From IMG/VR virus record IMGVR_UViG_2898748948_000004, positions 22,443 to 86,442 of that record: a DNA stretch of 64,000 bases. One strand, 5' to 3'. The stretch is from a virus (lineage: Duplodnaviria; Caudoviricetes). The notes under the pieces are model-generated. The model searched no databases, had not been told where the DNA came from, and was given only the letters and a program-made list of their open reading frames with translations. This document shows, piece after piece, positions 27,301 to 47,302 of this stretch. Each line of letters opens with the position of its first letter. The first letter of the stretch is position 1. The position numbers and the translations under genes were made by a program.

Positions 27301-29385
27301 ATGGCCAACCCCAAAGATGAATTCCAGCGACAGCAGCAAGCTGTGGCAGCTGCTGATGCGAAGGGCGGACAAGTTCAAGGCTTGGCTGTCTCGACTGACC
27401 CCAGCAATGCCAGCCGCTTTGCCAAGGTGCCCCCGGGCATCGGTGGTAATCCGCTCGTTCAGCAGTCGGCGCAAGCGGAAAAGAACACGAACCCCATTGC
27501 GGAAGCGGCTATGACCACGCCTGCTGCGCCAGCTGCCTCCCCTAAACCAAGCGCGCAATCGCCGGGCTTCACCCCAGCGCCAGCTACGAACTCTGCTGCA
27601 GGTTCCGCAGCTGCCGTGCCACTTTCCCCGCAGGCTCAGTCCGATAGAGCGCGAGTCGGCGCAGCCTGGGATACCGTCAAGGATGTGAACGACGACGCCG
27701 GCCGGGCCATTGCGGATATGGCGATGCTCGTGCCTCGCGGCGTGGCGGGTGCGTATGACAGCGCCGTGGTTCGACCCATGCGCGCCGCCGGCGTCAATGC
27801 CAGCTACCTGAGCCCCCATCTGGTGCCTGATGGCGTCGATCCAAGTAGCATGACGCCGTTCACCGACCAAAAACGCATGCAGCAGGCCGCCAACAGCAGA
27901 GCGCCTGGCGCTGCAGCTGTGCAGCCAGCTCAGACCGCTGGTGCCGGAGCGGGTACCTCTGAAGTCGGTGGCGGGCGCGGTTCCATCAATCCGCCGATGG
28001 CTGACCCCAGCGCACCGACCACGACCCTGGCCGGTGGTGCGACAGTAACGGGCAACCCCATGGCCCAATGGGATCGCACTGGCATGACCAATGCCGAGGT
28101 GGCACAAGCCAACCCGGGTGGCCGAGTGACCATGCAGCGCCAGCCCAATGGAACCATGTCTTTCAGCGGCACTGATGTATCGGGGCCGGTGTCTTACGCA
28201 GATGGTGCGGGCAAGCCGCTGCCTGGTGCAGGCATTCGCGGCAATGGCTTCAGCCGGGTAGATTCGACCCCCGCGGGCGCTTCTGTTGGCATGGACGGCG
28301 CAGGCAACTATGCATTTTCGAGCGGAAACCCGCTCACCAATGGCGCATCTGCTGGCCGGTCTCCTGTGGGAATGTCTGTTGAACAGGCTCAGCGCGAAGG
28401 CTTGATTGGTCAGCGAGTCGGATACAACCCTGCATATGACCAGCGGCTCACGGGCGAGAAGAGCCAGGCACCTGACAAAAACACTGGAGCTGCATCTTCT
28501 ACAGTGGATTCTGCGCTCGCATCTGCGGCTGCAAGGGGTGACTTTGACGCTGTGCGCGCCCACTACGCGGGGCGCGGCCAAGAGTTTGGCCCGCAGGGGG
28601 CAGCACAGGGCACGGGTGTTCCTGCATTCGAGGCTCCTACTGTGCGCCACAGCGGCAATGACTGGGCGGCGCGTCAGCAACTCAAGGATATGGAGGCTTC
28701 TGCGAGTTCGATCACCAACCGTGCCGAGTGGCGCAGTGGCAGCAGCACCCCCGCATGGGGCTCGCGCCATCAAGGGCAGAACGACCCGGACGGAAAGGTC
28801 GCGCGCTTCAATGCTGCCACCCAGGCCGATCTGGCTGCGCAAGGCAAGGCGCCTGACCTGCAGCAGCGCACCAATGAAACGAATGCCGGACTGCAACGCG
28901 CCGCCATGAGCGAGCAGGGTGAAAACTACCGGGCTGCCGGCAGAAATGCCATCGCAGCTGCTGGTCTGGCTCAACGCGGCCAGGAAATTAGCTCTCAGGC
29001 GGAGCTGCAAAACCTGGAGGTACAGCGCGCTCAACGCAGTGCTGGCGTCATGCAGCGCTATGACTCAGCCAAGGATGACGCAGAGCGCATGCAGCTCATT
29101 CGCCAATACCCTGATGTATTTGGGCAAAAGGCCATCGGGCCCCAGGGCAAAGACCGCTACATGACCGTTGGCGGTGGAACGTCTGTGGTGGACGGTCAGA
29201 CAGTGCGCGAGCCAACCATGGTGTTCGATACTGTCACTCAGCAGTACGTTGGCGGGGGTGCGCCTGGTGGCGGTCAGGCCGGACAACCAGCAAAAGCGCC
29301 GACCTACGAAAAGGATCAGATCTACGTCGATCCACAGTCAGGTGCGAAGCGGCGATGGAATGGACAGAGCTGGGATCGCGTGTAA
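27301..29385 (+). CDS. Internal virion (ejection) protein
   Basis: 694 aa, A/G/Q-rich, located before the giant protein; C-terminal YVDPQSGAKRRWNGQSWDRV beta-hairpin domain. Confidence 0.65.
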   Translation: MANPKDEFQRQQQAVAAADAKGGQVQGLAVSTDPSNASRFAKVPPGIGGNPLVQQSAQAEKNTNPIAEAAMTTPAAPAASPKPSAQSPGFTPAPATNSAAGSAAAVPLSPQAQSDRARVGAAWDTVKDVNDDAGRAIADMAMLVPRGVAGAYDSAVVRPMRAAGVNASYLSPHLVPDGVDPSSMTPFTDQKRMQQAANSRAPGAAAVQPAQTAGAGAGTSEVGGGRGSINPPMADPSAPTTTLAGGATVTGNPMAQWDRTGMTNAEVAQANPGGRVTMQRQPNGTMSFSGTDVSGPVSYADGAGKPLPGAGIRGNGFSRVDSTPAGASVGMDGAGNYAFSSGNPLTNGASAGRSPVGMSVEQAQREGLIGQRVGYNPAYDQRLTGEKSQAPDKNTGAASSTVDSALASAAARGDFDAVRAHYAGRGQEFGPQGAAQGTGVPAFEAPTVRHSGNDWAARQQLKDMEASASSITNRAEWRSGSSTPAWGSRHQGQNDPDGKVARFNAATQADLAAQGKAPDLQQRTNETNAGLQRAAMSEQGENYRAAGRNAIAAAGLAQRGQEISSQAELQNLEVQRAQRSAGVMQRYDSAKDDAERMQLIRQYPDVFGQKAIGPQGKDRYMTVGGGTSVVDGQTVREPTMVFDTVTQQYVGGGAPGGGQAGQPAKAPTYEKDQIYVDPQSGAKRRWNGQSWDRV

Positions 29386-29389
29386 CAGC

Positions 29390-29917
29390 TCAGTTGCGCA
29401 GAGGGACTGCACGGGCCGGGTTGAAGTCATCCCCGGCCTTTTTCATTTCTTGGTAGGTGCTCAAGGGAACAGCGCGAGAAGGGTCGAAGGTGTCATCCTT
29501 GCCGGCAGCACGATTGGGCAGGGCTCCCGGGCTGGAAACAGGTACGCGCCCTTCGGCTGCGTCAAACTGGTGGTCGTTGGTTCGTGTATAGACCGTGCCT
29601 AGCATCAGCAGTGCGGCGCAACCGATGCCCACCGCGATTCCAATGGCCTTGGTTGGGAGGTTCACAGTGAAATAACCAATGGCCGTGCCCAGCAGGCTCC
29701 ACCAGAAGGCCTGAGCGAACATGGCCGGCAACGCCGATTGTTGTGGCGTCATACCGGTGGCGCTCATTAATCCGATGGCCAGCATTGAGCCCGCCAGCAG
29801 TCCGCCGGACATCGATACCCCCCAGATAACCCCGGCGCCCGCCGCCCTGAACTGCATGCGACGCATGTAGTGGGCAGCCAAACAAGCAATGGCTGTGCAC
29901 AGTGCGAAGTAGATCAT
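29390..29917 (-). CDS. Antisense 4-TM membrane protein, candidate superinfection exclusion moron
   Basis: AAGGGGAG RBS; four hydrophobic helices; C-tail with repeated (D)xF[DN]PxRAVP motifs. Confidence 0.75.
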   Translation of the reverse strand: MIYFALCTAIACLAAHYMRRMQFRAAGAGVIWGVSMSGGLLAGSMLAIGLMSATGMTPQQSALPAMFAQAFWWSLLGTAIGYFTVNLPTKAIGIAVGIGCAALLMLGTVYTRTNDHQFDAAEGRVPVSSPGALPNRAAGKDDTFDPSRAVPLSTYQEMKKAGDDFNPARAVPLRN

Positions 29918-30038
29918 TGGAGCTCCCCTTTTTTGGCGGATTGTAACTATTGTCACTTGTGGCATGAAATAGTCGCGTTTGCGGGGTGCAGCCCTGCATA
30001 GGGTTTAGCGTTTTGCGTGCCCCGGATGACATTGGGGT

Positions 30039-33000
30039 ATGAGCGCAAATGACCAATTCGACCCCAGCCGTGCCGTACCTGTGAACTCTGCCGCCAGCCA
30101 GAAGCCGGAAGACGACTTCAACCCTGGTCGTGCCGTACCGATGAATGCGGATAACGCTCTGGTGCGCGGCTGGAAGTCGATGAGCAACTCGGTGGGAATC
30201 ACCAAGGATCTGGCAACGGGTGATGCAGCGGCTGTGGCGCGCCGAGTCAAGGAATTTGACGACTACAACCGCGTCAATCCTGGCAGTCAGCAGGGTCAAG
30301 AGCTGTCCAAGGCATGGGAGCAAGGCGACGGCATCACGGGCGGCATCGCAGGCGTTGCCGGCGAAATCGCCAAGGATTGGAAGGAAGCACCCAACTGGGT
30401 AGGTGGCGTGCGCTCGGTGGCTGGCAATGCAAAAGCCATGGGCGATGGCCTGGTTGCCCAGGTGCCCAATATGCTGGCACCGATGGTCGGTATGGTGGGC
30501 GGTGGTGTTGCGGGCGGCGCGGCAGCGGGGCCGGTTGGTCTGGCTGCTGGTGCATGGGCAGGCGCCTCTGCTGGCAATACGCTGGTCGAGGGCGGTGGCA
30601 TGCTCATGGATCGCCTGAACAAGGCTGGCATCAATCCTCAAGACACTGCGGCCGTGGAGAAGTTCACCCGCGAGCAAGGCGATGCTGCGCTGGGTGATGC
30701 TGCCATCAAAGGCGCCATCATCGGAGCCGTTGATGCAGCCACCGCTGGCGCTGGCGGCAAGATCCTGAACGCGCCGGCGAGAGCAGCGGCAGACCGTGCA
30801 CTGACGAAGATGGGCGTTGACATGACGGACGGCGCGGCGGTCAAGGCCGCTCAGAAATCCGATGCCTTCAAGGATCTGGTCGCCAAGGATGCGACCTTCC
30901 AGGCTGCAAGCTCAGGCGCTGGCAATGTTGCCCGTAACGTGGGCGTCGCTGCTCTTGATCCCGCAGGCGAGTTTGCCGGCGAGTTCGTGGGACAGGGCGT
31001 TGCCACCGGTGACTGGGACACCAAGAACGCGGCATTGGAAGCGATCTCGTCCGTGGGGCAGTCGGCCCTCATGTACGGTGGCCAGAAGGCCTATCAGGCG
31101 GCGACCAGCCCCCTGCGGGACAAGCGCGCGAACGAGTCTGACAAGGCCGATGGCGAACCGGAGGCAGGCAATCCAGTGCCGCTCATGCTGACCAATCAGC
31201 CCCCCGACACCTTGTTCACCCATCCAGACGGTTCTACAGGACGCCGCTCCGAAATGGAGTCGTACTTGAACAGTCTCAATGATGGGACGCCTGCCGGCGA
31301 GCGCCGGATGATGAAGGAGCGTGCCCGCTTGTTGGGCTATTCCTCGCCCGAGCCCTACGAGTTTGAAATTCCTGATCTCGTGCCTTGGCAAGAGGACTAT
31401 CGCAATCACTCCTTCGGTCTGCCGTATCAGCCACTGCAAGATCATCTGGGCGCCGTTCAAGCAGCCGTGCGTAGCGGAACCCAGTTCACAGATCAGCAGA
31501 CTGTCGATGCTGTGCGCTCCACCATGGAAGACGCTTGGCTTGAGGCCAACGTAAAGCAGCAGCCCGCGTCGGCGGTCGAGGCAGCCAGCATTGCCGGTCA
31601 GCAGATGGAGCAAGAACTGGCCGCGGCGGCGCCTGGTGAGACAGGTTCCACAGCAGCTGTCGATGCCCAGGTGCGCACCAGCCGAATACTGTCTGGTCTG
31701 CAGAATGCCATGGACAGCGGTGCCATGGGAACAGCCCAGTCCATCAACTATCTGAACGAGGCCCTGACTCGCATTGGTGAGCAACCGCTCGCGCAGGACG
31801 AGGCAGCGCGCGCTCGCCGTCTGCTCGATGCGCATGCGGCATTCACCGGAAAAACCACGCCCGCGCCACTGCCGGGTGATCTCGCCGCTCAAAACCCTTT
31901 GGTCGATGAGTTTGCCGACAACGCGGCATTGGAGTCCCTGGTTCGGCGCAAGCCATCTGAGCGACTGGGCATTGATCCCAGTGCCGGGCCCAACTCGAAA
32001 GCCGCAGCAATGGCGGTCGATGCGGCGCAGTCCGAGCCTGCAACCCCTGCCATCGATGCGGCTCAGCCTCTATCGCTCCAGAACCCGCTGTTGGCCATTT
32101 CATCCAGCAGGGAGAACGCCGCTCCAGCGGCATCGCCATTCAACATCAACGGAGATCTCGATGGCCGTGAAGCCTATCAAGCCCAGCAAATCAGAGCGCA
32201 ACAGGCGCAAGCAAGAGCAGCGCAAGGCAGCGAAGCTGGTGGCCGACAAGACCAAAGCATTTCAGGCATTGGCAGTGCACCTGGGCATTTGGGGCAAGGC
32301 GTAGGCTATGGCACCGCCCCAGCTATCAACAATGGCCCGCAAGTCCCAGCGCAGAATGCAACGCAAGGCCAAGCGTCAGAAGCTCAGACTGCTACGGAAA
32401 CAGGAGCGCGCGAAACACGAGAACCCAGCACCTTCTCAAAGTATGCAGGTCAGAGTGAATCCTCTGAGGCCAATGGCGCTATAAATTCAGAGGCGAAGCA
32501 GGCGGCGCAACCCGCTTCCGACGCCATGACCATCGGCAGCACCCCCAAGACTGGCGATGCGGTGTCTGTGCGCGACGGCGTTGTGTATCTGGGTAACTAT
32601 GAGGCGCTGGACTACGACAGTGGCGAACCCATCACGGTTCCCGCCGACGCAACTCGTGGCCAAGTGGCCCAGGCCCTGCGCGATGGCGGGGTACTGACCG
32701 ACCGCCAAAAGGTCTTCGGCCTCAAAGACCGCGAGCATGAGCGCATATCCGGCCCGGTGGCCCCCGCCGTTCAAGCTCCGGCTCCTGCGCCGGCCGCCAA
32801 TGCGCCTGCACCGAATCCTGCGAGGCTGCGCCAGCAGAAGGCCATCGAGCGTATCAACAGCGAGAAGGGCGCCTACTTCTTCTCCAAGTCCAAGGCCGAT
32901 GCATTCCTGGCCGATAACGATCTGCAGGACGGCTATGAGGTCGTGCAGCAAGAAAAAGCGTTTGCCATCAAAGCCAAGCAAGCGATCGCGGCAGCCGTGG

Positions 33001-36000
33001 AAGCGGAGGCGCCTGCTGCCGGAGAAGCCAATCCCGTCACCAATCAGAATTCTGGTACCGGCATTTCCGGGCGCGATCTGGGCGACGGCTGGGCCGAATT
33101 TGCCCCTGAGTCGGGCACCAAGTCTGTGCCTCGGGCAGAAATGCCTCAGATCAAGGCCGAGCACCGCGGCGCCATGGTGAATTTCATGAACGCGCGCGGC
33201 GTGGCCCATGAAGAGGCGACAGTGCCTGCTTCCAGTCTCAAGCCCACCCAGCGCGAGTTCAGCCGCGAGAAGGTAGAGAAGGCCAAGGCCTATACCGGTG
33301 GCAATCGCGCCATCCTGACATCCAGCGACGGTCATGTGCTGGACGGCCATCACCAGTGGATGGCGGCGCGCGAGAACGACGAGGATGTGCGCACCATCCG
33401 CCTGGACGCGCCCATTGATGAGCTGGTGAAGCTGGCTCACGACTTCCCCAGCTCTACTGTTGCTGATGGCGCTACTGAAGGCCAAGCGAAGGAGGATCAG
33501 GGCGAAGCATCCCAAACAGCGGCAGAGCGTGCCACACAGTCGAATGCTGACTTCATCAAGGCGTTAGCAGAAGCCCGTAAGGAGCTGCCTGCTGGATTTG
33601 AGATCACCCCCATGGGTGACACGATCTCGCTCAAGGAGAAAGGCAAGTTCGCTGTTAATGGGCTTGGCCGCAACCGTGCAGGGGTGGAAGAGGCTCTGCG
33701 ACAGGCGAAGCAGCGTGATTCTCAGAATAAAGCTGAAGCCGCTGCACCTGAGCAAACCAAGGGTGAGAAGAAAAAACCGCGCCTGGCGGAAAGCGCTGAT
33801 GCTCTGTGGAAGGCCATCAAGGAAGCAAGCAATGGTGTTGTTACCGAGCGCGGTATCCGCTATCCGATCATGGAAGTTGTCGGGGGCGATTGGTTCATGA
33901 TGGATTCCAATGCCCGCTTGAAACTGATTGATCGTGGCGCTGCGAGCTTGTCCTACTCCGAGCCAACCGATGCTCAGATTGCTGAGTTTCACGATGCCTT
34001 GGAAAAAGACCAGGTGCAAGTGCGCGTGATGGAGCGTGCTGGTTACGAGTCCGACTACAAGAACCCTAAGACCCTGCAAATCTTGCATAGCCCCTCTGGC
34101 ATGGGCTTCAATTCGGCTGCCCGGTCTGTCATCCACAAGATGGCGTTCAAGAAGACGGAGGCCGAGCGCATTGAAAGTCAAGCTTCCGTCAAGAAGGCCG
34201 CAGAGCAGGAGGCCAGAAAGGCATCCCGCGAGGTCGAGCGTGACTTGTTCCGCCAGATGACGGCGGCCAACGGCGGCATGGCCGGCAAGAGTCTGGATCA
34301 AGTGACCGATGCGCTCAAGCAGCAACTCGGCTCCCGCGACGCCAGCACCGCGCTCAACCCGGTGCAGATTTCCCGTCTGGCTCGCGCCATCCATAAACAG
34401 CTGCAGGCCAATGCGGCACAGCTGGCTAAGGAAGCAGCGCGCGATCCCCAGGTGAAGGCTGATGCCCAGGCCGAGGCCTTGGGCAATGCCTTTGGCGAGG
34501 ACGTATCGCCCCAGAGCAAGGGCGATTTCCTGCTGGGCTTTGACCACGCATTGGCTGGCAAGACCAAGAGCACGCTATCTGGTGCCGGCCTGGCCGACAT
34601 GGTGAAGGGCTACGAGGCCGCGAGCGAATGGATGGGTACCGAGGAAGGTGCCGCCTGGTTTGAAGGCAAGCGCCGCAAGAAGCTGGAAAACACGGGTGTG
34701 GATCTGCGTCGCCACTGGGAGGCCATGAAGGCCCAGATGAAGGCCGGCGAGTCCGATATGCAAAAGGCATGGAAGCAAATCGAAGCGGCCACTAACCGCG
34801 CCGAGCTGTTTGCGCCATATCTACCCGAGGGCTCTACCCCTGGCTGGGTGGCATACGTGTCTCAACTGCGCGGCATTACCAAGACGTTCAAGCAGTTCAT
34901 GTTCGACGGCCGAGCAAGCTGGTATGGCTCTGTGGCTGTGTCTCGTAAGGGTAAGGAAGCGGCCAATCTGGAGTTCGTTCTGGACGGCAAGCGCTACCCC
35001 GGCGCCATGTCGATCGAGCAGCGCCAGCAGTGGCAGACCGACCCGGTGTTCCGCATGGCTCAGCTGCGCGAAGCTGCTGAGCTCTATATAGAGAAGGTGC
35101 AAGAACTCACGGCATTCCTTGACGGCGCCACATCGCTGAAGGAGGCCGCTGATCGCTTTGTGGACACCATGGTCGCGGAGAAGCACCAAGAAAAGGCCCG
35201 CAACCGCGACACCTACTACAGCCGCTATGAGCGCATCAATGCGGATCGCCTAGACGGTGTGCTGTACGGCGTTCACGGCGGTGGAGTGTTTGACCGTGGA
35301 GTGTGGAATGGCGACTCCTACGATTTCACCAAGTTCCGTGCGGCTAGTCCCTGGGCCTCGGGCCTGATTGCGAACGAGGCAACGCATGCGTTGCCCACGC
35401 GCGCCACGCCGCTGACACCGCCCAAGCTGGATCGTGTCGATCGCGCCATGTCCAAGGATCATCGCGGCGGCAAGGATGTGACGCCCGCGCAGTTCAAGGC
35501 ACAGTTCGGCTTCGCGGATGTGGGCTTTGGCAACTGGGTCGGAGCCAAGAACGACCAAGATCACCTGAACTACGCCTTCGACGCCTTCATGGATCTGGCT
35601 GAACACTTCGGCTTTGCGCCGAAGAACATCGGTCTGGGCGGTGTGCTGCATTTCACGGTAGGCGCGCTGGGTCATGGCAAGTTCGCTGCACATTTCAGTC
35701 CCAACCACCCTGGGCCCAATGGCCGCGTGCAGGTCATGAATTTGACCAACACCAAGGGTGACGGAACGGTGTACCACGAGTGGGCCCATGCACTTGACCA
35801 CAACCTAGGTGGTGAATGGGATCGGGTCAAGGTCATGATCCTCAACGCTTTCAAGTTCAAGGCCTATGAGGCTTCGGACTGGGAGCGCGTGGCCCGCAAT
35901 TTCCTAGTGGGCGGTTCCTACTGGCAGGGCAACAAGAACCAAGACAAGGTGGACGCGGCCATTCAAGGCCTGCGCTACTACGCCAACACCGGCGCTCGCC

Positions 36001-39000
36001 GCGGTCTGACAGCCTATAAAGAGAATGCCGACAAGCTGGGCAAGGACTATTGGGGCAATGACGCCGAGCTGCTGGCACGCGCCGTTGAGGCCTGGTCTGC
36101 GGACAGCCTGGGCGGCATCAACTCCTATCTGGTCAATCAAGACTGGGTGGGCGACGGCAAGGTGACTCAGGCCAGCGGCTATCGCGGCACGCCGTATCCC
36201 ACCGGTGGAGAGCGGGTAGTGTTTGGGCAGTACCTGACGGCTCTGGCCAAGTCCGTGAAGTTCACCGATGGCAAACCCACTGTGACCGTGACAGACTTCG
36301 AGAGGAATCTGCCTGCGAACATGGGTGCTGGTGAAGTGCGACGCAGGGAGCTGTTGTCCCGGGAGGGTATGCAGGCCTATTTCGAGCAGGTGCAGGAAGA
36401 GCGCGCCATGGCGGCCGAAGAGAAGGCCCGTCTTGAACTCGAGAAGCAGGCCGAGGACAAAGCCAAGGTTGATGCCATGGCCGAACAGGCCCTGGCCGAG
36501 CTAGAGGCAATGAGCAAGCCCGCGGTAGTGGACGCTCCTGCACCTTCGGAATCCCGCGGCCCTCTGTCCGATGACGACCTGAGCGCAATCTTTGATCAGG
36601 CGGCAGCCGAGTTGCGCGAGCAAACCCAGGAGCAGCCGAATGTATCGGCCACCAACGAAGCAGCCGCTATCAGCGAAACTGTTGCTGCTACTGTACAAGC
36701 AGCGGCCGGACAGGCAGACAAGACCGCGGCTAAGCTGATTGCCGAGGCTGCTAAGCTGGGCGTGACCGGCGCCAATGAAGCGCTGTCGGGCCTGGCCAAG
36801 CTGTTCGGCGGCGGCAAGGGCGGTCGTCTGAACTCCTTCCCGGCCGGCTTCGATGAGGAAACCTACAAGGCGGCTAAGCCGCACTTCAAGGCTGCGCTCT
36901 CATCCTTCCAAGCAGCTGGCAAGTCTCTCAAGGATCTGTTCAAGCTGCTGATCCAGAACTTTGGCGATGGGGTCAAGGATTACGCTATCCAGTTCGCCAA
37001 GGATGAGGGCCTGTCCGCGCAACTGGGCAAGGCACCAACTGCTGGCGCTGCTCGCAGCCCCTCGGGCGTACTGGCCGACTGGGTGAAATCCCAGCTAGAG
37101 CGCGGCGCGGCTGATGGCAGTTTCGACTGGCGCGCATTGTTTGAACAAGCTGATTCCGCCTTTGGTGGCACGCAGGCTGAGGGCAAGTACACGCCCAAGG
37201 ATGCCTACGATGCCATGGAGGCGGGGGTTAACCATTTCATTCTGTCCCGTCCCGGCGAGTTCAACCCGAACGCCAGCCAGGATGCAGCTCACATCATCGT
37301 GGAACGTCTGCACCGCATCACGCAGATGCTGCCGACTCAGACGAAGCGCACTGCGGAACAAGATGAGTTCCAGCAGTTCAGCACTGTCCCAGCCCTGGCC
37401 TATGCAGCCAACTGGGCGGCAAACATGGATAGCAGCGACACGATGCTGGAGCCCAGCGCCGGTATCGGCGGTCTGGCGGCCTTTGCGAAGAATGCAGGTG
37501 CTAAGCTGATCCTGAATGAACTCAGCAGCCGCCGCGCTGCCGTGTTGCGTGAGGTGTTCCCGGCAGCCAAGGTTTTCACGGAGAACGCTGAGCAGATCGA
37601 CAACATCCTGCCCGCGACGGAGATCCCTTCCGTGGTGGTGATGAACCCACCCTTCAGCGCGACCGCTGGTCGCATTCAAGGCAAGCGTGACACGCATGTC
37701 GGCGCCCAGCATGTTGAGCAGGGCTTGAAGCGCCTGGCCGATGGTGGCCGTCTAGTGGCCATCGTGGGTGAGGGCATGAATCTCGACCGCCCGGCCTTTG
37801 CCGACTGGTGGAAGGGCATTCGCGCCAAGTATGACGTGCGCGCCGTGATCCCCATGGATGGCTCCGGCTACGCCAAGTACGGCACGACCTTCGACAATGC
37901 CATTTTGGTGATCGACAAGGTGAAGCCGTCCAATCGTCCTATTGTCACAACTCCTGCCAAGACTTACAGTGACCTCATTGGCAGCCTTGCCGAGATCCGC
38001 AATGACCGACCAGAATCTATTTTCCCGTCAAACGATCGTGACGGACTTGAACTCGACGCCGCAGAGCATGCACTTGCTGAGTCTTCTCAAGCAGGCAGGG
38101 GTTCCGCACAACCCGAACAATCTGGTAGTGACCAGCGTTCTGATGTGGGCCGCGCAGAATCTGGCCGGGGACAGGGGCTGGGCGCAGGAGGTGGAGGGCG
38201 CGGCAGCGCTGGCGGATCTGGAGTCGCCGGAAATGATGGCGCAAAATCTCGCCCAGGCCGAGGTGCTGGAAGCAACGACGCTCGAGGAAGCCGCGATGAT
38301 TCTGCTACAGGAGGTGGCGGATCTGATGCCGCCCAATCAGCTCTAAGCATTCAGGCGACTGAGCAGGCCGGCGATCCCGAAGCTGGCCTGAGTGACTCGA
38401 TCTTTGAGTCCTACCAGCCCCAGCGTCTGCAAGTACCCGGTGCCAAGCCGCACCCCGGCCCGCTGGTGCAATCTTCGGCCATGGCCGCCGTGTTGCCGCC
38501 CGTACCGACTTACACCCCGAATCTGCCCAAGGAAACGATTGAAAAGGGCTTGCTGTCGATCGCCCAGATTGAGGCAGTCGTTTATGCGGGCCAGGCCCAT
38601 CAGGAATTGCTGGAGCCTATTACCGTTGATGGCAAGGATGTCGCTTATCGCCGCGGCTTCTTCATCGGTGACGGTACCGGTGTTGGTAAGGGGCGCGAGA
38701 TCTCGGGCATCATTCTGGACAATATGCGCCAGGGCCGTGAAAAGGCTGTCTGGATTTCGGAGAAGCCCGGGCTGCTGCCCGACGCACAGCGCGATTACTC
38801 GGGCATCGGCGGCGATTCCAAGCAGATCTTCAATGTCAGCAAGACCAAGGCCGAAGAGCAGATCAACGCTGACAAGGGTATCGCCTTCCTGAGCTATGCC
38901 ACTTTGCGCAGCGGCGCGAAGTCTCAGGAAAATGTTGCCACTCCCACCACCAAGGCACAGTTCGCCAAGCAGTTCCCCAAGGGCTTGGATGTAGTAACCA

Positions 39001-42000
39001 CCAACGGCCGCGGCACATTCCCTCTGGATCACATCGACCCCAAGGATGACGGCGGTAAGGTCTGGGTTAAGGTGGGCGGTGAGCTGAAATTCATCCGCTA
39101 TACCAGCGTGGAGTCCATCGGTGGCCAGAGTGATTGGCTGTCGGGCCGCAGCACGCAGTCGGCCAAGGGCAGTAAAAAGGAAGGGCAGTCCCGCCTGGAT
39201 CAGCTGGTTAATTGGCTGGGTAAGGACTTCGACGGCGTGATTGCTTTCGATGAGGCACATAACGCCGGCAATGCCGTAGCCCAGAAGGGCACGCGCGGCC
39301 AGTCCCAGCCTTCCGCCCAGGCCCTGGCTGTGGTCGAGTTACAAAAGCGTCTGCCCAATGCCCGAGTGGTCTACGTGTCCGCAACTGGTGCGACCCAGGT
39401 TTCCAACCTGTCGTTCGCCACCCGTCTGGGCCTGTGGGGCCCGGCAACACCTTTTGCCGGTGTGCAGAACTTCATTGCTGAAATGACTGCTGGCGGTCTG
39501 GCGGCTATGGAGCTGGTGGCGCGCGATCTGAAACAGATGGGGGCGTACATGGCCCGCAGCCTCTCCTTTGAGGGCGTGACGTATTCCCGCGTTGAACATC
39601 AGCTGTCACCGCTACAGCAGGACATCTACAACCGTTTGGCTGAGGCGTGGCAGGTCACGCTGCAGAACATTGACGCGGCTTTGAAGACCACGGGTGCTGT
39701 GGGCGAAAACGGCAAGGGCTCTTCCTCGGCCAAGAGCGCAGCCATGTCCGCATACTGGGGAGCACAGCAGCGCTTCTTCAGCCAGGTCATCACCAGCATG
39801 CAAATGCCTTCGGTGCTTGAGCAGATGGAGCGCGACGTTGCCGATGGCAAGGCCCTGGTGCTGCAGCTGGTCAACACCAACGAGGCCCAGCAGAACCGCT
39901 CAATCGCCAAGCGCCGGGAGGAAGATGAGTCCGCCGACTTGGAAGAGCTGGATCTCACACCACGCGATGTGTTGATGCAGATGGTTGAAAAGTCGTTCCC
40001 TGTTACCCAGTTCGAGGAGCAGGAAGACGATTCGGGCAAGAAGATCCGCGTGCCCGCTAAGGATTCGCAAGGCAACCCGGTCATCAACCGGGAGGCCGTG
40101 GCCATGCGCGAAGCTCTCCTAAAGGATCTCAAGGACATCCGCGTCCCCGATGGCCCTCTGGAGATCGTGCTGAACCATTTTGGTGTGGATAAGGTGGCAG
40201 AAGTCACCGGCCGCACACAGCGCGTGGTGCGCAAGCTGGACAAGGATGGCGAGCTGAAAGCGCAACTCGAGTCTCGCGGCCCCGCATCGGCCCGCGCCGA
40301 TGCCAATGCGTTCATGGCTGACCAAAAGCCGATTCTGGTGTTCTCAGATGCTGGCGGTACCGGCTATTCCTTCCACGCTGATAACACGCAGAAGAACAAG
40401 CGCAAGCGCAGCCACTATCTGATTCAGCCTGGCTGGCGTGCGGATAAAGCGGTGCAGGGTTTCGGCCGCACTCACCGTACCAACCAGGCCAGCGCGCCTC
40501 ACTACTATCTGGCGTCCACCAACGTGCCTTCGCAGAAGCGCTTCCTGTCGGCCATCGCTCGCCGGCTGGATCAGCTGGGCGCTTTGACCAAGGGTCAGCG
40601 CGACACTGCCAATCAGGGCATGTTCAGCGAAAAGGACAATCTGGAGTCCATCTATGCGACTCAGGCTGTGCAGCAATTTTTCAAGGATGGCCAGCACCAG
40701 CAGCTGGACGGCATCAGCTTCGCGGAGTTTCTGCGCCAGACTGGGCTGGAAAGCATCATTGACGAGGAAACCAATCGCATCGCGGAAGACCGGATGCCCG
40801 ATACACGCACTTTCCTGAACCGCATGCTGTCCCTCAAGCTGGATATGCAGGAAAAGGTGTTCGATGCCTTCATGCTCCGTATGGAAGAAAAGGTGGAGAT
40901 GGCTGTGGAGCGCGGCGAGTTCGATGCTGGACTGCAGACGATTCGCGCTCTGGAATCCCGTGTGGTGGCAGATGATCTGGCTTACACCGACCCTCGCTCA
41001 GGTGCTGAGACGCGCCTGGTCGAGCTGGAGCTGACCCAGCCGACCACCATCTACCCATTCCCGCACTCCCTGCAAAAGGCTGAGTACGTGGTGAATGTGA
41101 AGTCGGGCAAGGTCTATGCAAAGACTCTGGTGGGCAAGTCAACGACCAAGGAAGGTGCGGTTGTCGATCGCTTTCGCTTCTACGGCACGGGCAGCGTCCA
41201 GTCGAAGACCGCCCCAGAGATTGCCAAGGCCTTCCGTGGCTCGACCAAGGCCGAGGCCATGAAGCTTTGGGCTGCTGAAAACGAGGCCCGCCCCAAGACC
41301 TACACCGAGCGCAAGCACATGATCGTCGGTGCGATGCTTCCGATCTGGGATCGTTTGAAGACGGACGGCTCCATTCAGGTGGCACGTACTATGACTGTGG
41401 ACGGCAGCCGCCTGCTGGGCCGCGTGATCGACAAGAAGAGCCTGCCCGATGTGCGTAAGCGCCTGAATGTGTCCTCGGCTGCATCCAAGATGAGTCCGGC
41501 CCAGGTGATGGCACAGATCCTCAAGGGGGACAAGGCTGAATTGGCCAATGGCTGGTCATTGGAACGCGCTCGCGTTTCGGACGACCTGCGTATTGAGTTG
41601 AAGAACCCCAGCGGCGGCTATATCAGCCCAGCGGTGCGCGCCGACCTGGTGGGCATCGGTTTGGTGAGCGAGCGTATCAGCTGGGCTGAGCGCCTGTTTG
41701 TGCCGACAGGTGCGGCAGGCGTTCCGGTGCTGGAGCGCTTGACCAAGAACCGCCCCGTGGTCGATCTGCAAGGCGAGCAAGATACTTCCGAGGCGCATTT
41801 CGGTGCTGGCCAAGGTGCTAAGGTCGGAAGCCGTACCGACCGGGCCGTGATGGACATGGTGCGCGAGGGCAAGTCCGCAGCTGACATCTTGGGGCTGATT
41901 GCTTCCACTTCCAAGACACCATTCAATCGCAAACTGTCGGCCCTTCTGGTGAAGGCTGGCGCTGCACCACGCATCAGCATGGGCGGCGATATGGGCGCGG

Positions 42001-45000
42001 ATGGCGGCTTCAATTTCCTGGCCAAGTACAGCCGAAAGCTCGAAGAGCTGACTTTGAGCGAGGGTGCAGCAAGTCGCGCCGAGCAGATTTTCCTGCACGA
42101 AATGACGCACGCCGCCACTCTCAAGAGCCTTGACCGCAAGGGCATCGCCTCTTTGCAGATGCGCAAGTTATATGAGCATGTGAAAAAGCAGGGCGGGGCT
42201 GCTGGTGCTTACGGCATGAAGAATGTTGGAGAATTCGTTGCCGAAGCGTTCACTAACCCGGAGTTCCAGCGTGCGCTGCGGGCCATGAAAGCGCCGGCTG
42301 GCAGCTCTCTCCAAAACGCTTGGGACGCGTTCGTGCGTATTCTCAAGGCTGTGCTGGGGCTGCCGGCCAAGTCCGAGGATGCCTTGTCACGCGCCCTTGA
42401 GCTGGGTGTACTGGTCATGCGTGAGGATAGGGCGCTGCGCCAGGCCAGCCAGAAAGATCGCGCCACGCAATCGAGCGTGCGCCAATTCTTGGACGGCAAT
42501 GCCGTGGCCAGCATGCGAGGCGACGAGGTTCCCCGCCTGGGCGGCCAGGCCCTTGTGGTCAACTGGGCTGCCAAGCACTTCGAGTCCGCGACCAAGGACG
42601 GTGCAGTCGTGCATCCTGAACTGGGCCAAATCAAGCTGGATCGCCGCAGCGCCAAGGACTCTCTGAGCCATGGCTATGGCAAAGACAAAGTACAGGCACT
42701 GTATCTGTTGCCCGAGGTTTTGCCGAAGGCGCGAGTCCTGCATACCGAATCCCGCAAGGAAGGTCAGACAGGCTATGTACTGGGAGCGCCTGTGGAGATT
42801 GGTGGCAAAGCATATGTCGCCGCCATGGTCGTGACCCAGCATGAGGGCCGTACAGGCTTGTATGTGCACGAGGTTGTGCTCAGAGAAAAGCTCCAGGGTG
42901 CCATCAATACCGGTGCTCCTGCACAAAGCCAAGGCGACATTGCGCAGTCCTCGCGGGGCAACCCTGGAGCCATTCGCAGTGTGCTTGAGCGCATCTACGC
43001 TGTCAATCCCGATGGCAACGCAGACGATGTGGCACATTTCGGGGTGAGCGATGCGGCCGAGGCTGCCAAGAACATTGGGCAAGGCCTCAAGGCAATTACG
43101 GCCACGGATGTGAAGAAGGCCGGTAGCCACAAGCTGACCGACTGGCTCAAGCTGGGCCTGCAGTTCATGGGCCGTCGCCAGTTGGTGGATATTTACGGCG
43201 ACACCATCCCCATGGCTGAGTATGACCGTCTGGTGGCTCAGATGGAAGCGGACAAGAACGATGTGGGCGCTGAGGCTGACAACCTGGCTACGCGCTGGGG
43301 CAAGCTCAAGGACGAGGTTCAACTGTCTGAGTTGATGCATGACGCCACTTTGGCCGAGATCGATGCAGACAGCAGCAAGGAGTATGTCGAAGGAGATGAC
43401 AAGGCCCAGAGTGCCGCTCTCAAGCGCCGCTTTAGTGCTCTTTCGCCGGAGGCAAAGGCCGTGTACCGGGAGGCCCGTGACCACTACCGTGAGCATCACA
43501 AGCAGGTGCGCAATGCCATCCGTGAGCGGATCATGCGCGCCGAACTCAGCAGCAAGAAGCGCCAGGAGCTGCTGGAGAAGATGGACGCTGATTTCTTCGG
43601 CTATGTGAAGGGGGTGTATTTCCCTCTGGCTCGCTTCGGCCAGTACGTGGTGGCTACCAAAGATCAGGACGGCAAGGTGATCAGCGTGTCTCGTGCCGAA
43701 ACCATGACCGAGGCCGAGCGCATGCGCGATGAAATGCGCAAGGCTTTCCCGGCCGCCAAGGGTTTCAATGTGGGCCGCGTAACGCTGAGCAAGGACTTTG
43801 TGGCAACCCATGACATGGTGGGACGCGGCTTTATGTCCGAAGTTTTCGCAGCTCTGGACAAGCACGAGATCCCCGCCGACAAGCGCGCCGAGCTTGAAGA
43901 CACGTTGGGTCAGCTGTACCTCTCGTCGTTGCCGGATCTCTCCTGGGCAAAGCATGGCATCCACCGCAAGGGAACGCCGGGCTTTAGCCAGGACGCCCGT
44001 CGAGCGTTTGCACAAAACTCCTTCCACGGTGCTCGCTATTTGGCAAAGCTCCGCTACAGCGACCTGATGGCCGACGAGTTGGACAATATGCAAAAGCATG
44101 TGGATACCATGGGAGCGTTCAAGGATGACTTTGATCAACCCAAGGCTCAGCGTGTGGTCGATGAAATGCAGAAGCGTCACGACCAACTGATGAACCCCAA
44201 GACCAACTCGCTTTCCACGGCGCTGACCAGCTTCGGCTTTATCTTCCATCTGGGGCTCTCGCCCGCCGCCGCCATGGTCAACTTGTCCCAGACTGCGCTG
44301 GTGGCCTACCCGGTGATGGGCGCAAAGTGGGGCTTTCAGAAGTCGGCAGCTGCGCTGCTGCGCGCATCTAATGAGTCGGTCAAGGGCAAAAACGACATTC
44401 GCACGCAGCTCAAGGACAAGGACGAGCTAGCCGCGTATGACGAGGCAGTGCGATCCGGTGTGATCGATGTGACCATGGCTCATGATCTGGCCGGCATTGC
44501 CCAAGGGGAGGATGCGGGCGTAATGTGGAAGTTGCGACCTGTGATGCGCGCCGCATCTTTCCTGTTCCACCACGCCGAACGTTTCAACCGCCAAGCTACC
44601 TTCATTGCGGCCTATCGCCTTGCCCGCGACGCCGGTAGTGACCACTACAAGGCTTATGAGGAAGCAGTGAAGGCTACCTATGACGGTCATTTTGACTATG
44701 GATCTGCCAACCGCCCGCGCTTGATGCAGGGCAATGTGGCCCGTGTGGTGCTGCTGTTCAAGCAGTTCGCGCAAAACATGATCTATACGCTGGGCCGCAA
44801 TGCCTACCTGGCCGCCAAGGGTGACAAGCAGGCACTCAAGACCTTCGCCGGTGTGATCACCATGCATGCGGCCGGGGCCGGTGTGCTGGGTCTACCGTTG
44901 GTGGGGCCGTTGCTGGCGCTGGCATCTGCCTTGGGTGGGGACGACGACGATCCATGGGATGCCGAGATCGCGCTGCGCAATATGATGGCCGATGTGTTTG

Positions 45001-45686
45001 GTCAGCAGGTGTCGGAAGTGATCGCTAAGGGCTTCTCGCGCTTGACTCCTTGGGATATTTCGGGACGCATCGGGCTTGATAACCTGATCTTCCCTGATAT
45101 TCGTGAGGGGCTGGAGGGCAAGATGTGGGCGCAGGAGATGGCGACTGGTCTGCTGGGCCCCGTGGTCGGCATTGGTATCAATGGCGCCCGCGGCGCTCAA
45201 CTGCTGGCTGACGGTGATTTCATGCGTGGACTGGAAAGCATGATGCCGGTTGTGCCACGCAATGCCATCAAGTCGGCCCGCTTCTTGCAAGAAGGCGCCA
45301 AGGACTCCACTGGTATCACGATCAAGGACGATGTGAGTGCTTTGGGTATTGCCGGCCAACTGGTGGGCTTTTCGCCCTCGGAAGTCCGCCTGGCCTTTGA
45401 AGGGCGTAGTGCTGTCATGAATTCGGATCGTCGCTTGAACGTGCGCCGGGCCGAGCTGCTCGGCCAGTTCTCGCATGCGGTCATGAAAAAGGACAGCGAA
45501 GCTCAGGCCGAGGCGCGCGAGGAAATCAAGGCTTTCAACGAGAAGAACCCTGGCCGCCGTATCACCAGCCCTCAAATGTGGCAGAGCGTGCGTGCGCGCC
45601 AGCGCCGCATCGATCAAGCGCAGGATGGGGTGTATCTACCTCGCAATCGACGCGACGCCATGGATGCGGGTGGTTTCGCCTTCTAG
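30039..45686 (+). CDS. Giant DarB-like polyvalent virion protein (5215 aa): ParB-like, LPD1-like, N6-MTase, Strawberry-notch SF2 helicase, zincin, LPD3-like and PLxRFG domains
   Basis: DGHHQW (~33340), HEWAH (~35775), ELLARAVEAW, EPSAGIGG/NPPF (~37450-37655), GDGTGVGKGRE, FDEAH, SATG, QGFGRTHRTNQ (~38670-40490), HEMTH (~42095), YFPLARFG (~43620). Confidence 0.92.
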   Translation: MSANDQFDPSRAVPVNSAASQKPEDDFNPGRAVPMNADNALVRGWKSMSNSVGITKDLATGDAAAVARRVKEFDDYNRVNPGSQQGQELSKAWEQGDGITGGIAGVAGEIAKDWKEAPNWVGGVRSVAGNAKAMGDGLVAQVPNMLAPMVGMVGGGVAGGAAAGPVGLAAGAWAGASAGNTLVEGGGMLMDRLNKAGINPQDTAAVEKFTREQGDAALGDAAIKGAIIGAVDAATAGAGGKILNAPARAAADRALTKMGVDMTDGAAVKAAQKSDAFKDLVAKDATFQAASSGAGNVARNVGVAALDPAGEFAGEFVGQGVATGDWDTKNAALEAISSVGQSALMYGGQKAYQAATSPLRDKRANESDKADGEPEAGNPVPLMLTNQPPDTLFTHPDGSTGRRSEMESYLNSLNDGTPAGERRMMKERARLLGYSSPEPYEFEIPDLVPWQEDYRNHSFGLPYQPLQDHLGAVQAAVRSGTQFTDQQTVDAVRSTMEDAWLEANVKQQPASAVEAASIAGQQMEQELAAAAPGETGSTAAVDAQVRTSRILSGLQNAMDSGAMGTAQSINYLNEALTRIGEQPLAQDEAARARRLLDAHAAFTGKTTPAPLPGDLAAQNPLVDEFADNAALESLVRRKPSERLGIDPSAGPNSKAAAMAVDAAQSEPATPAIDAAQPLSLQNPLLAISSSRENAAPAASPFNINGDLDGREAYQAQQIRAQQAQARAAQGSEAGGRQDQSISGIGSAPGHLGQGVGYGTAPAINNGPQVPAQNATQGQASEAQTATETGARETREPSTFSKYAGQSESSEANGAINSEAKQAAQPASDAMTIGSTPKTGDAVSVRDGVVYLGNYEALDYDSGEPITVPADATRGQVAQALRDGGVLTDRQKVFGLKDREHERISGPVAPAVQAPAPAPAANAPAPNPARLRQQKAIERINSEKGAYFFSKSKADAFLADNDLQDGYEVVQQEKAFAIKAKQAIAAAVEAEAPAAGEANPVTNQNSGTGISGRDLGDGWAEFAPESGTKSVPRAEMPQIKAEHRGAMVNFMNARGVAHEEATVPASSLKPTQREFSREKVEKAKAYTGGNRAILTSSDGHVLDGHHQWMAARENDEDVRTIRLDAPIDELVKLAHDFPSSTVADGATEGQAKEDQGEASQTAAERATQSNADFIKALAEARKELPAGFEITPMGDTISLKEKGKFAVNGLGRNRAGVEEALRQAKQRDSQNKAEAAAPEQTKGEKKKPRLAESADALWKAIKEASNGVVTERGIRYPIMEVVGGDWFMMDSNARLKLIDRGAASLSYSEPTDAQIAEFHDALEKDQVQVRVMERAGYESDYKNPKTLQILHSPSGMGFNSAARSVIHKMAFKKTEAERIESQASVKKAAEQEARKASREVERDLFRQMTAANGGMAGKSLDQVTDALKQQLGSRDASTALNPVQISRLARAIHKQLQANAAQLAKEAARDPQVKADAQAEALGNAFGEDVSPQSKGDFLLGFDHALAGKTKSTLSGAGLADMVKGYEAASEWMGTEEGAAWFEGKRRKKLENTGVDLRRHWEAMKAQMKAGESDMQKAWKQIEAATNRAELFAPYLPEGSTPGWVAYVSQLRGITKTFKQFMFDGRASWYGSVAVSRKGKEAANLEFVLDGKRYPGAMSIEQRQQWQTDPVFRMAQLREAAELYIEKVQELTAFLDGATSLKEAADRFVDTMVAEKHQEKARNRDTYYSRYERINADRLDGVLYGVHGGGVFDRGVWNGDSYDFTKFRAASPWASGLIANEATHALPTRATPLTPPKLDRVDRAMSKDHRGGKDVTPAQFKAQFGFADVGFGNWVGAKNDQDHLNYAFDAFMDLAEHFGFAPKNIGLGGVLHFTVGALGHGKFAAHFSPNHPGPNGRVQVMNLTNTKGDGTVYHEWAHALDHNLGGEWDRVKVMILNAFKFKAYEASDWERVARNFLVGGSYWQGNKNQDKVDAAIQGLRYYANTGARRGLTAYKENADKLGKDYWGNDAELLARAVEAWSADSLGGINSYLVNQDWVGDGKVTQASGYRGTPYPTGGERVVFGQYLTALAKSVKFTDGKPTVTVTDFERNLPANMGAGEVRRRELLSREGMQAYFEQVQEERAMAAEEKARLELEKQAEDKAKVDAMAEQALAELEAMSKPAVVDAPAPSESRGPLSDDDLSAIFDQAAAELREQTQEQPNVSATNEAAAISETVAATVQAAAGQADKTAAKLIAEAAKLGVTGANEALSGLAKLFGGGKGGRLNSFPAGFDEETYKAAKPHFKAALSSFQAAGKSLKDLFKLLIQNFGDGVKDYAIQFAKDEGLSAQLGKAPTAGAARSPSGVLADWVKSQLERGAADGSFDWRALFEQADSAFGGTQAEGKYTPKDAYDAMEAGVNHFILSRPGEFNPNASQDAAHIIVERLHRITQMLPTQTKRTAEQDEFQQFSTVPALAYAANWAANMDSSDTMLEPSAGIGGLAAFAKNAGAKLILNELSSRRAAVLREVFPAAKVFTENAEQIDNILPATEIPSVVVMNPPFSATAGRIQGKRDTHVGAQHVEQGLKRLADGGRLVAIVGEGMNLDRPAFADWWKGIRAKYDVRAVIPMDGSGYAKYGTTFDNAILVIDKVKPSNRPIVTTPAKTYSDLIGSLAEIRNDRPESIFPSNDRDGLELDAAEHALAESSQAGRGSAQPEQSGSDQRSDVGRAESGRGQGLGAGGGGRGSAGGSGVAGNDGAKSRPGRGAGSNDARGSRDDSATGGGGSDAAQSALSIQATEQAGDPEAGLSDSIFESYQPQRLQVPGAKPHPGPLVQSSAMAAVLPPVPTYTPNLPKETIEKGLLSIAQIEAVVYAGQAHQELLEPITVDGKDVAYRRGFFIGDGTGVGKGREISGIILDNMRQGREKAVWISEKPGLLPDAQRDYSGIGGDSKQIFNVSKTKAEEQINADKGIAFLSYATLRSGAKSQENVATPTTKAQFAKQFPKGLDVVTTNGRGTFPLDHIDPKDDGGKVWVKVGGELKFIRYTSVESIGGQSDWLSGRSTQSAKGSKKEGQSRLDQLVNWLGKDFDGVIAFDEAHNAGNAVAQKGTRGQSQPSAQALAVVELQKRLPNARVVYVSATGATQVSNLSFATRLGLWGPATPFAGVQNFIAEMTAGGLAAMELVARDLKQMGAYMARSLSFEGVTYSRVEHQLSPLQQDIYNRLAEAWQVTLQNIDAALKTTGAVGENGKGSSSAKSAAMSAYWGAQQRFFSQVITSMQMPSVLEQMERDVADGKALVLQLVNTNEAQQNRSIAKRREEDESADLEELDLTPRDVLMQMVEKSFPVTQFEEQEDDSGKKIRVPAKDSQGNPVINREAVAMREALLKDLKDIRVPDGPLEIVLNHFGVDKVAEVTGRTQRVVRKLDKDGELKAQLESRGPASARADANAFMADQKPILVFSDAGGTGYSFHADNTQKNKRKRSHYLIQPGWRADKAVQGFGRTHRTNQASAPHYYLASTNVPSQKRFLSAIARRLDQLGALTKGQRDTANQGMFSEKDNLESIYATQAVQQFFKDGQHQQLDGISFAEFLRQTGLESIIDEETNRIAEDRMPDTRTFLNRMLSLKLDMQEKVFDAFMLRMEEKVEMAVERGEFDAGLQTIRALESRVVADDLAYTDPRSGAETRLVELELTQPTTIYPFPHSLQKAEYVVNVKSGKVYAKTLVGKSTTKEGAVVDRFRFYGTGSVQSKTAPEIAKAFRGSTKAEAMKLWAAENEARPKTYTERKHMIVGAMLPIWDRLKTDGSIQVARTMTVDGSRLLGRVIDKKSLPDVRKRLNVSSAASKMSPAQVMAQILKGDKAELANGWSLERARVSDDLRIELKNPSGGYISPAVRADLVGIGLVSERISWAERLFVPTGAAGVPVLERLTKNRPVVDLQGEQDTSEAHFGAGQGAKVGSRTDRAVMDMVREGKSAADILGLIASTSKTPFNRKLSALLVKAGAAPRISMGGDMGADGGFNFLAKYSRKLEELTLSEGAASRAEQIFLHEMTHAATLKSLDRKGIASLQMRKLYEHVKKQGGAAGAYGMKNVGEFVAEAFTNPEFQRALRAMKAPAGSSLQNAWDAFVRILKAVLGLPAKSEDALSRALELGVLVMREDRALRQASQKDRATQSSVRQFLDGNAVASMRGDEVPRLGGQALVVNWAAKHFESATKDGAVVHPELGQIKLDRRSAKDSLSHGYGKDKVQALYLLPEVLPKARVLHTESRKEGQTGYVLGAPVEIGGKAYVAAMVVTQHEGRTGLYVHEVVLREKLQGAINTGAPAQSQGDIAQSSRGNPGAIRSVLERIYAVNPDGNADDVAHFGVSDAAEAAKNIGQGLKAITATDVKKAGSHKLTDWLKLGLQFMGRRQLVDIYGDTIPMAEYDRLVAQMEADKNDVGAEADNLATRWGKLKDEVQLSELMHDATLAEIDADSSKEYVEGDDKAQSAALKRRFSALSPEAKAVYREARDHYREHHKQVRNAIRERIMRAELSSKKRQELLEKMDADFFGYVKGVYFPLARFGQYVVATKDQDGKVISVSRAETMTEAERMRDEMRKAFPAAKGFNVGRVTLSKDFVATHDMVGRGFMSEVFAALDKHEIPADKRAELEDTLGQLYLSSLPDLSWAKHGIHRKGTPGFSQDARRAFAQNSFHGARYLAKLRYSDLMADELDNMQKHVDTMGAFKDDFDQPKAQRVVDEMQKRHDQLMNPKTNSLSTALTSFGFIFHLGLSPAAAMVNLSQTALVAYPVMGAKWGFQKSAAALLRASNESVKGKNDIRTQLKDKDELAAYDEAVRSGVIDVTMAHDLAGIAQGEDAGVMWKLRPVMRAASFLFHHAERFNRQATFIAAYRLARDAGSDHYKAYEEAVKATYDGHFDYGSANRPRLMQGNVARVVLLFKQFAQNMIYTLGRNAYLAAKGDKQALKTFAGVITMHAAGAGVLGLPLVGPLLALASALGGDDDDPWDAEIALRNMMADVFGQQVSEVIAKGFSRLTPWDISGRIGLDNLIFPDIREGLEGKMWAQEMATGLLGPVVGIGINGARGAQLLADGDFMRGLESMMPVVPRNAIKSARFLQEGAKDSTGITIKDDVSALGIAGQLVGFSPSEVRLAFEGRSAVMNSDRRLNVRRAELLGQFSHAVMKKDSEAQAEAREEIKAFNEKNPGRRITSPQMWQSVRARQRRIDQAQDGVYLPRNRRDAMDAGGFAF

Positions 45687-46174: not shown

Positions 46175-46183
46175 GGAGCAGTC

Positions 46184-47290: not shown

Positions 47291-47302
47291 TGGGTAAAGC
47301 GC

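Follow-up and report, generated by a model that had tools for sequence, protein, structure and literature searches.

The stretch of DNA analysed here (the window: 64,000 nucleotides, bases 22443-86442 of the 86,442-bp IMG/VR provirus IMGVR_UViG_2898748948_000004, or G000; 60% GC; CheckV completeness 91%) carries, antisense within a late structural operon, a small gene for a predicted inner-membrane protein of 175 amino acids (aa). The C-terminal tail of this protein reproduces the tandem peptides with which the 5215-aa product of the adjacent giant gene begins. We put somewhat better than even odds (a probability of about 0.55) on the small protein's being a peptide decoy that is displayed in the periplasm and excludes phages of the same type by capping their incoming ejection protein. 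The observations that carry this reading are the mimicry itself, the purifying selection acting on it, the three-way co-variation of decoy tail, giant leader and the C-terminal module of the upstream ejection-like protein (E), the grouping of all three in one cassette, and an antisense gene position like that of sieA in phage P22. The features concerned, in window coordinates, are:

27301-29385, plus strand: E, a 694-aa ejection-like protein (PHROG 11341, unknown function), between the SU10-type adaptor and the giant gene
29317-29382, plus strand: C-terminal module of E, QIYVDPQSGAKRRWNGQSWDRV; its type tracks the peptide class across loci; proposed partner of the leader and decoy peptides
29390-29917, minus strand: the small gene, for a 175-aa four-helix predicted inner-membrane protein, the proposed decoy (open reading frame (ORF), homologues)
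29399-29434, minus strand: tail mimic copy 2, GDDFNPARAVPL, aa 162-173; invariant in alignment A1
29462-29497, minus strand: tail mimic copy 1, DDTFDPSRAVPL, aa 141-152; invariant in the six homologues of alignment A1
29537-29572, minus strand: degenerate third copy, HQFDAAEGRVPV, aa 116-127 (sequence inspection)
30039-30149, plus strand: leader of the giant protein, aa 1-37, with tandem DQFDPSRAVPV (30051-30083) and DDFNPGRAVPM (30111-30143)
30039-45686, plus strand: the giant gene, for a 5215-aa large polyvalent virion/ejected protein (ORF, Pfam, NCBIfam)

The shared peptide and the protein that carries it

The giant ORF begins MSANDQFDPSRAVPV, followed by EDDFNPGRAVPM, with an F-to-F spacing of 20 aa; the minus-strand ORF ends KDDTFDPSRAVPL, then GDDFNPARAVPLRN, with a spacing of 21 aa. 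The order of the motifs is the same in both proteins and FDPSRAVP is identical in leader and tail. A six-frame search of the entire 86,442-bp record for F[DN]PxRAVP finds exactly four occurrences, all of them in these two genes (residues 7-14 and 27-34 of the giant, 144-151 and 165-172 of the small protein). The codons differ at synonymous positions (giant versus small gene: Ser AGC/TCT, Pro CCC/CCT, Arg CGT/CGC, Ala GCC/GCT, Val GTA/GTT), and the motif-encoding DNA arms, inverted and ~600 bp apart, are 74% complementary over 27-38 nt; the pair is therefore not a recent DNA copy. All of what the original prediction had pointed out regarding the motif pairs (their order, their spacing, the identity of FDPSRAVP and the synonymous codon differences) survives the six-frame search and the codon comparison. 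The degenerate third copy that it had also noticed is present but weak, being loosely conserved only among close relatives (QFDPTDRRAPM, SFDEPQAAPA). Selection on the peptide, likewise proposed then, is borne out: six homologues, with membrane cores that go down to 40% identity, all keep the tail FDPSRAVPL-TY--MKKA-D-FNPARAVPLRN unchanged, which, as judged from the alignment, shows the mimicry to be under purifying selection.

The small gene is convergent with the E gene and lies 4 bp past the E stop codon. Its start is most likely the ATG at 29917 (MIYF..), with AAGGGGAG in front, and not 29965; all homologues begin M[IL][YH][FY]. Helices are predicted at residues 2-20, 28-54, 60-86 and 89-117, followed by a 60-aa tail that is mostly disordered (AlphaFold2). 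The protein belongs to no Pfam, PHROG, NCBIfam or ESM Atlas family. The 20 homologues of the four-transmembrane-helix (4TM) family (P0001-5 and P0055-69) conserve the hydrophobic core, including GQAFWW among its invariant residues. A scan with the family alignment found no match in the genome contigs and, in the viral contigs, only L006 (L numbers designate loci); the only relative in the sequenced-phage collection, BK061591 (Hollowayvirus-labelled), is without a decoy gene.

Co-variation of tails, leaders and the E module

In the 49 giant homologues (P0006-54) a shared, conserved N-domain begins at about residue 38 (..DNALVRGWKSM..). Ahead of it, most of the homologues in which a leader can be recognised have a tandem pair of short acidic/aromatic peptides that vary in sequence by lineage: FDPSRAVP/FNPGRAVP, IDDFL/IDNFL, YLSDSDVGFG twice, PFTGKLD twice, NPFxDPNYG twice, FFDQFD twice and PWEMDW twice are examples. 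The self-repeat score of the leader is reached by 0 of 200 shuffles in 30 of 43 leaders, and by 1 of 200 in five more.

The tails of the decoys follow. Within the 4TM family a profile search shows a conserved core with variable tails that draw on the peptide vocabulary of the leaders. The same slot is taken in other loci by a protein unrelated to 4TM (scaffold 2; ~115 aa, with a Sec signal peptide and six conserved Cys ahead of a variable tail), and in one by a bitopic protein (scaffold 3). Cognate matches of tail and leader extend over about 20 peptide classes on these three unrelated scaffolds, for example:

L010 (4TM): giant YLSDSDVGFG twice; tail YLSDEEVGF
L012 (4TM): giant DWE[NS]GSF..P twice; tail DWEKGVFTPP
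L001, L003, L004 and the window (4TM): giant FDP class; tail FDP class
L024 (scaffold 2): giant NPFSKFH; tail NPFKRFHE
L032 (scaffold 2): giant DQFGGTLV; tail DQFGGVVV
L037 (scaffold 2): giant SLSQEFGL / SLAEEFGL; tail C-SALAQEFGLN-C
L034 (scaffold 3): giant TDSWGESDKIV; small protein TNWGANDKVV

In a matrix of seven classes, scored by BLOSUM over 8-mers, cognate pairs reach 33-43 against at most 25 in six of the seven, and 1 of 5040 permutations attains the observed sum. For 35 scaffold-2 loci from IMG/VR, representing about 15 classes, the median cognate 7-mer score is 34, compared with 17 for non-cognate pairs, and the cognate scores add up to 1146, the highest of 20,000 permutations being 794. 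Co-variation of the motif between the two genes had been named beforehand as the result by which the original prediction could be refuted; permutation tests and recurrence on three scaffolds show it to be strong. (Precomputed tables list most scaffold-2 proteins under PF28034 (VF_A0006), which is marked 'faint' in the contig look-up; a local Pfam search was empty.)

Three lines of indirect support point to display of the tails in the periplasm, where the original prediction had placed them. Lysine and arginine residues number 39 in loop 1 and 36 in loop 3, but 16 in loop 2, of 20 4TM sequences, a bias that should place the tail on the non-cytoplasmic side. In scaffold 2, classical signal peptides (..A.A|GNFATC..) go with the six conserved Cys, and in several tails the motif lies inside a Cys-Cys loop (PC-TEISEFLKE-C, C-SALAQEFGLN-C). 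Both marks of a molecular-mimicry decoy, namely lineage-by-lineage co-variation with the peptide that is mimicked and display in the compartment in which the target would act, are found here, the second as a prediction.

Some tails hold two or three classes in series (P0060-P0062, L034:5163-5810, L042, L043, L048, L053, L078 and L105), as in FDPSRAQPV + FNPQRAVPV + EIEKFLDG and TTWLDKSS + SEIEQFLRD, which suggests that these may be multi-specific decoys. Long tails of both unrelated scaffolds, 4TM (P0066-P0068) and secreted (L041-L061), have in common an inserted domain of ~70 aa (..IYAAHPDADA.F....F..W..) ahead of the mimic peptides.

A third element co-varies with tails and leaders, and it is the partner that had been guessed for the peptides, the upstream protein's C-terminal YVDPQSGAKRRWNGQSW end: from one peptide class to the next, the final 30-40 residues of E differ, independently of the remainder of the protein. 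The module types are:

FDP type (Comamonas-type, Pseudomonas and metagenomic backbones): G.xYxDxxGxxxxW[ND]Gxx[WF]
NPFxDPNYG class: NHIxALKxNPxQAAxFDxxYGxGAAAR
PFxGKLD class: GxPVYEDxxG
IDDFL type: AIAI[KR][ND]..SL..EQ[KR]..ALRKLGY
LAxEFGL class: EVExAAKEDGVSxDDYIRAL

Across the 43 unique loci of scaffold 2, similarity of decoy tails correlates with similarity of E modules (Mantel r 0.59; 0 of 2000 permutations). Where the backbones of E are dissimilar, the module is shared by 15 of 16 same-class pairs, as against 6% of other pairs. In the AlphaFold2 model the module forms three short strands with a predicted local distance difference test score (pLDDT) of ~80. Its assignment as WW/DUF2510-like was dropped, there being no Pfam match at E <= 5 and a best Foldseek match in the PDB with E 0.56.

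The three elements lie in one block, which comparison with a ~90% identical provirus (G001, IMGVR_UViG_2528311002_000006) delimits:

28590-30150, no strand assigned: exchangeable specificity cassette, made up of E from ~aa 430 to its end, the decoy gene and giant aa 1-37

Identity between window and G001 is 91% up to 28589 and 88% from 30150. From the head genes to the giant gene, the block between these points alone has weak or no similarity to G001: one 339-nt piece (28907-29245) matches at 69% and the remainder is unmatched. The main other differing blocks are in the tail-fibre/nozzle region (window 46000-51500), as expected for host-range modules.

Proposed mechanism, its rivals and known exclusion systems

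The small protein would, as we see it, be an inner-membrane anchor that presents, on the periplasmic side, a replica of the giant's tandem N-terminal peptides. During assembly of the ejection conduit by an infecting virion, the leader peptides would dock in the periplasm on to the C-terminal module of E, and the giant would in this way become linked to the trans-envelope conduit. A prophage-carrying cell would make the decoy, which would cap E modules brought in by phages of its own class, so that productive docking would not take place and delivery of DNA and protein would fail. E module, decoy and leader would make up a single exchangeable cassette that sets the specificity class, and tails stringing together two or three classes (those of P0060-62, L034, L042, L043, L078 and L105) would widen the range of exclusion. 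We infer the role of the E module as binding partner, the expression of the decoy by the prophage and the exclusion phenotype.

Several findings weigh against this reading. The pairing of leader IDDFL with tail EISEFL in two 4TM loci (L006 and L015) is at noise level in the seven-class matrix; it is backed indirectly by better IDDFL-type tails on other decoys and by a shared E module. Eight loci (L008, from P. aeruginosa, L020, L021, L023, L025, L031, L033 and L035) have tandem leaders with no mimic in the flanks searched. The E module has no recognisable peptide-binding fold (none in Pfam at E <= 5, none by Foldseek). No sigma-70 promoter or terminator passed a consensus scan. P22 SieA, the positional analogue, shows no peptide mimicry of gp16 or gp20. 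Finally, because E module, decoy and leader are physically contiguous, linkage contributes to the three-way signal, and part of their co-occurrence could reflect it rather than interaction. Linkage cannot account for the similarity of the peptides themselves, nor for the repeated module boundaries.

The strongest of the rival explanations, although still rather unlikely, is that the leaders bind a host periplasmic or inner-membrane protein and that the decoy occupies this host factor and not E. Colicin translocation domains work on such lines: the disordered N-terminus of an envelope-crossing protein carries short linear Tol/Ton boxes and tandem OmpF-binding sites, sometimes as two copies of an epitope, which can be blocked by competing copies of epitope or target. 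The leaders are also short acidic/aromatic linear motifs at the N-terminus of an envelope-crossing protein (and some classes, ..SDKIV and ..DDEVV, may resemble TonB-box-like strings), and the predicted location of the decoy in the periplasm would suit this explanation as well. The epitopes of colicins, however, bind conserved host proteins, whereas the classes seen here co-vary with a phage-encoded module, which they follow even where the backbones of E differ, and it is the phage that encodes the competitor. A host target is also hard to square with the more than 15 peptide classes that phages of related hosts carry, and saturation of an essential factor by a prophage would be costly to the host. 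Less probable than this is a superinfection sensor, in which the periplasmic mimic would bind ejected material and signal its arrival (for lysis inhibition, as by T4 RI, for abortive infection or for control of induction). Such a sensor would be displayed in the periplasm with the same class specificity as a decoy; the conserved 4TM core, with GQAFWW and its other invariant residues, could transmit a signal, and immI-like regulators are adjacent. The soluble secreted scaffold, however, has no membrane part with which to signal, and the three unrelated scaffolds have only the peptide in common, which speaks for activity residing in the peptide alone.

A part in the phage's own morphogenesis or lysis, with the mimic regulating the interaction of E with the giant or the localisation of E in the lytic cycle (holding E back, or timing assembly), has slightly poorer prospects again. 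That the gene lies within the structural module and shares its specificity with E and giant speaks for such a role, but virions are assembled in the cytoplasm, whereas signal peptides and Cys loops mark the mimic as probably exported; in every locus the gene runs antisense to the late operon, it is grouped with prophage-type morons, and in many related phages the flanks searched contain no decoy. Finally, similarity without function, left behind when neighbouring inverted sequences recombined or underwent gene conversion, would fit the inverted disposition, the ~600-bp separation and the 74% complementarity over 27-38 nt of the motif segments, yet it is most improbable in view of the different codon families (AGC versus TCT), the invariance of the tail across 40%-identical homologues, the recurrence of the relation on unrelated scaffolds, at distances of up to 4.8 kb and in about 20 classes, and the outcome of the permutation tests.

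The closest known system is SieA of P22, where the gene order is gene 16 (+), sieA (-), mnt (-), arc and ant (+). Antisense and convergent, sieA follows immediately on the last of the ejection-protein genes, beside mnt/arc/ant, and the layout found here matches it. The decoy gene is opposite in strand to the giant gene in 35 of 35 loci, and usually convergent on the E stop codon. In a further arrangement it lies divergently upstream of E instead of between E and giant (L034:5163-7911, L014:1-3237, L095-L099 and L107); L014 was considered as a case of a decoy on a satellite, in view of its DUF927 primase neighbours, and rejected because the adjoining E homologue makes the context that of a phage. 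In several loci an immI-like moron island separates decoy and giant genes (L006:3817-5918, L015:2524-5762, L016:23-951, L024:1000-5800), its contents being Arc/RHH repressors, AntA/ANT/Bro-N antirepressors, T5orf172 and a YafO-like toxin; in the window the same interval measures only 121 bp.

SieA, which blocks DNA injection by phages of its own type (Leavitt et al., mBio 2024, PMC10883804), is a small inner-membrane protein (162-164 aa, the protein of the window having 175 and being predicted to lie in the inner membrane). Mutations that escape it map to C-terminal parts of ejection proteins gp16 and gp20, its mechanism being unknown (PMC10883804); these sites parallel the proposed targeting of the C-terminal module of E. 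The differences are as clear: three predicted transmembrane helices in SieA and four here; a motif, FxRYPxEAxxFNK, predicted to be cytoplasmic in SieA (PMC10883804) and absent from the 175-aa protein; and SieA sequence types that did not differ in specificity (PMC10883804), whereas specificity here would be written in a hypervariable tail. Comparison by hhalign of alignment A3 shows no homology to P22 SieA (probability 0.1%).

An exclusion protein that blocks injection falls into a known functional category. T4 Imm and Sp, HK97 gp15, T5 Llp and lactococcal Sie2009 are small membrane or periplasmic proteins, made by prophages or early in infection, that stop genome entry; to our knowledge none of them copies a peptide of the incoming ejected protein and none has a swappable specificity cassette. 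Literature searches (on SieA, mimic/decoy exclusion, polyvalent proteins and PLxRFG) yielded no account of the tandem leaders, their pairing with the E module or the mimic proteins. The mechanism of peptide mimicry, the three-part specificity cassette and its deployment on unrelated scaffolds appear to be new.

Neighbouring genes and the meaning of the cassette

The finding has as its neighbours an SU10-type portal and adaptor, the major head gene, E (syntenic in all related loci), the minus-strand small gene and the giant gene. The source record G000 and G001 are both proviruses and L001 lies within a Comamonas testosteroni chromosome; a tyrosine integrase (PF00589) was not detected in the whole of record G000, which is estimated to be 91% complete. 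The giant protein comprises the conserved N-domain from aa 38, LPD1, a Strawberry-notch-type helicase, LPD3, LPD39 and a C-terminal PLxRFG domain (NCBIfam NF032893, E 2e-253), with Pfam matches above cut-offs to PF18796, PF13872, PF13871, PF18798 and PF18858. A partial match to NCBIfam CLCA_X (NF041907; 74 bits, below the cut-off of 260) at aa 1805-2034 (window 35451-36140) overlaps the zincin-like LPD1 region. As a single virion-associated polypeptide that combines several LPD domains with enzymatic ones, the giant counts as a large polyvalent protein, for which injected anti-restriction proteins of the P1 DarB type provide a comparison among kin. Like the large polyvalent proteins of Iyer et al. 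(J Bacteriol 2017, PMC5512222), the giant has LPD, helicase and methyltransferase-type domains and a location among virion genes; searching their paper by term turned up no passage on tandem leaders, lineage classes, pairing with a neighbour's C-terminus or decoys.

29918-30038, no strand assigned: divergent intergenic region between the small gene and the giant gene (alignment of five loci)

This region includes a minus-strand -10-like TACAAT (29940-29945), 22 nt before the ATG of the small gene and conserved in L001, L003 and L004; the alignment of relatives shows no conserved -35 to pair with it. The region may serve as promoter for the small gene. A box, CCCTGCATAGGGTTT (29992-30006), ~35 nt before the ATG of the giant gene, is conserved in five loci, the distant L010 among them.

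More broadly, though we would stop a little short of an even wager on it, a large clade of temperate podophages with giant polyvalent ejected proteins may use a modular addressing code, consisting of leader, E module and decoy in one cassette, that would define exclusion groups, some decoys being multi-class and of wider range; such groups would be analogous to the immunity groups of colicins or the incompatibility groups of plasmids. How short-tailed phages assemble an ejection conduit and how proteins of the SieA type block it are largely unknown. Here the contact is legible in sequence, as a linear peptide of ~8 aa, a likely receptor module and a natural competitor, and the roughly 20 specificity variants found in nature could act as controls that come with the system. 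Direct tests become possible of docking as a step in ejection, of how injection-blocking exclusion works and of the arms race that diversifies them, and the finding supplies a rule by which cross-immunity between prophages could be predicted from sequence. Short peptides might inhibit infection in trans. The N-terminus of the polyvalent/PLxRFG giant proteins, which are widespread, gains a functional interpretation as well.

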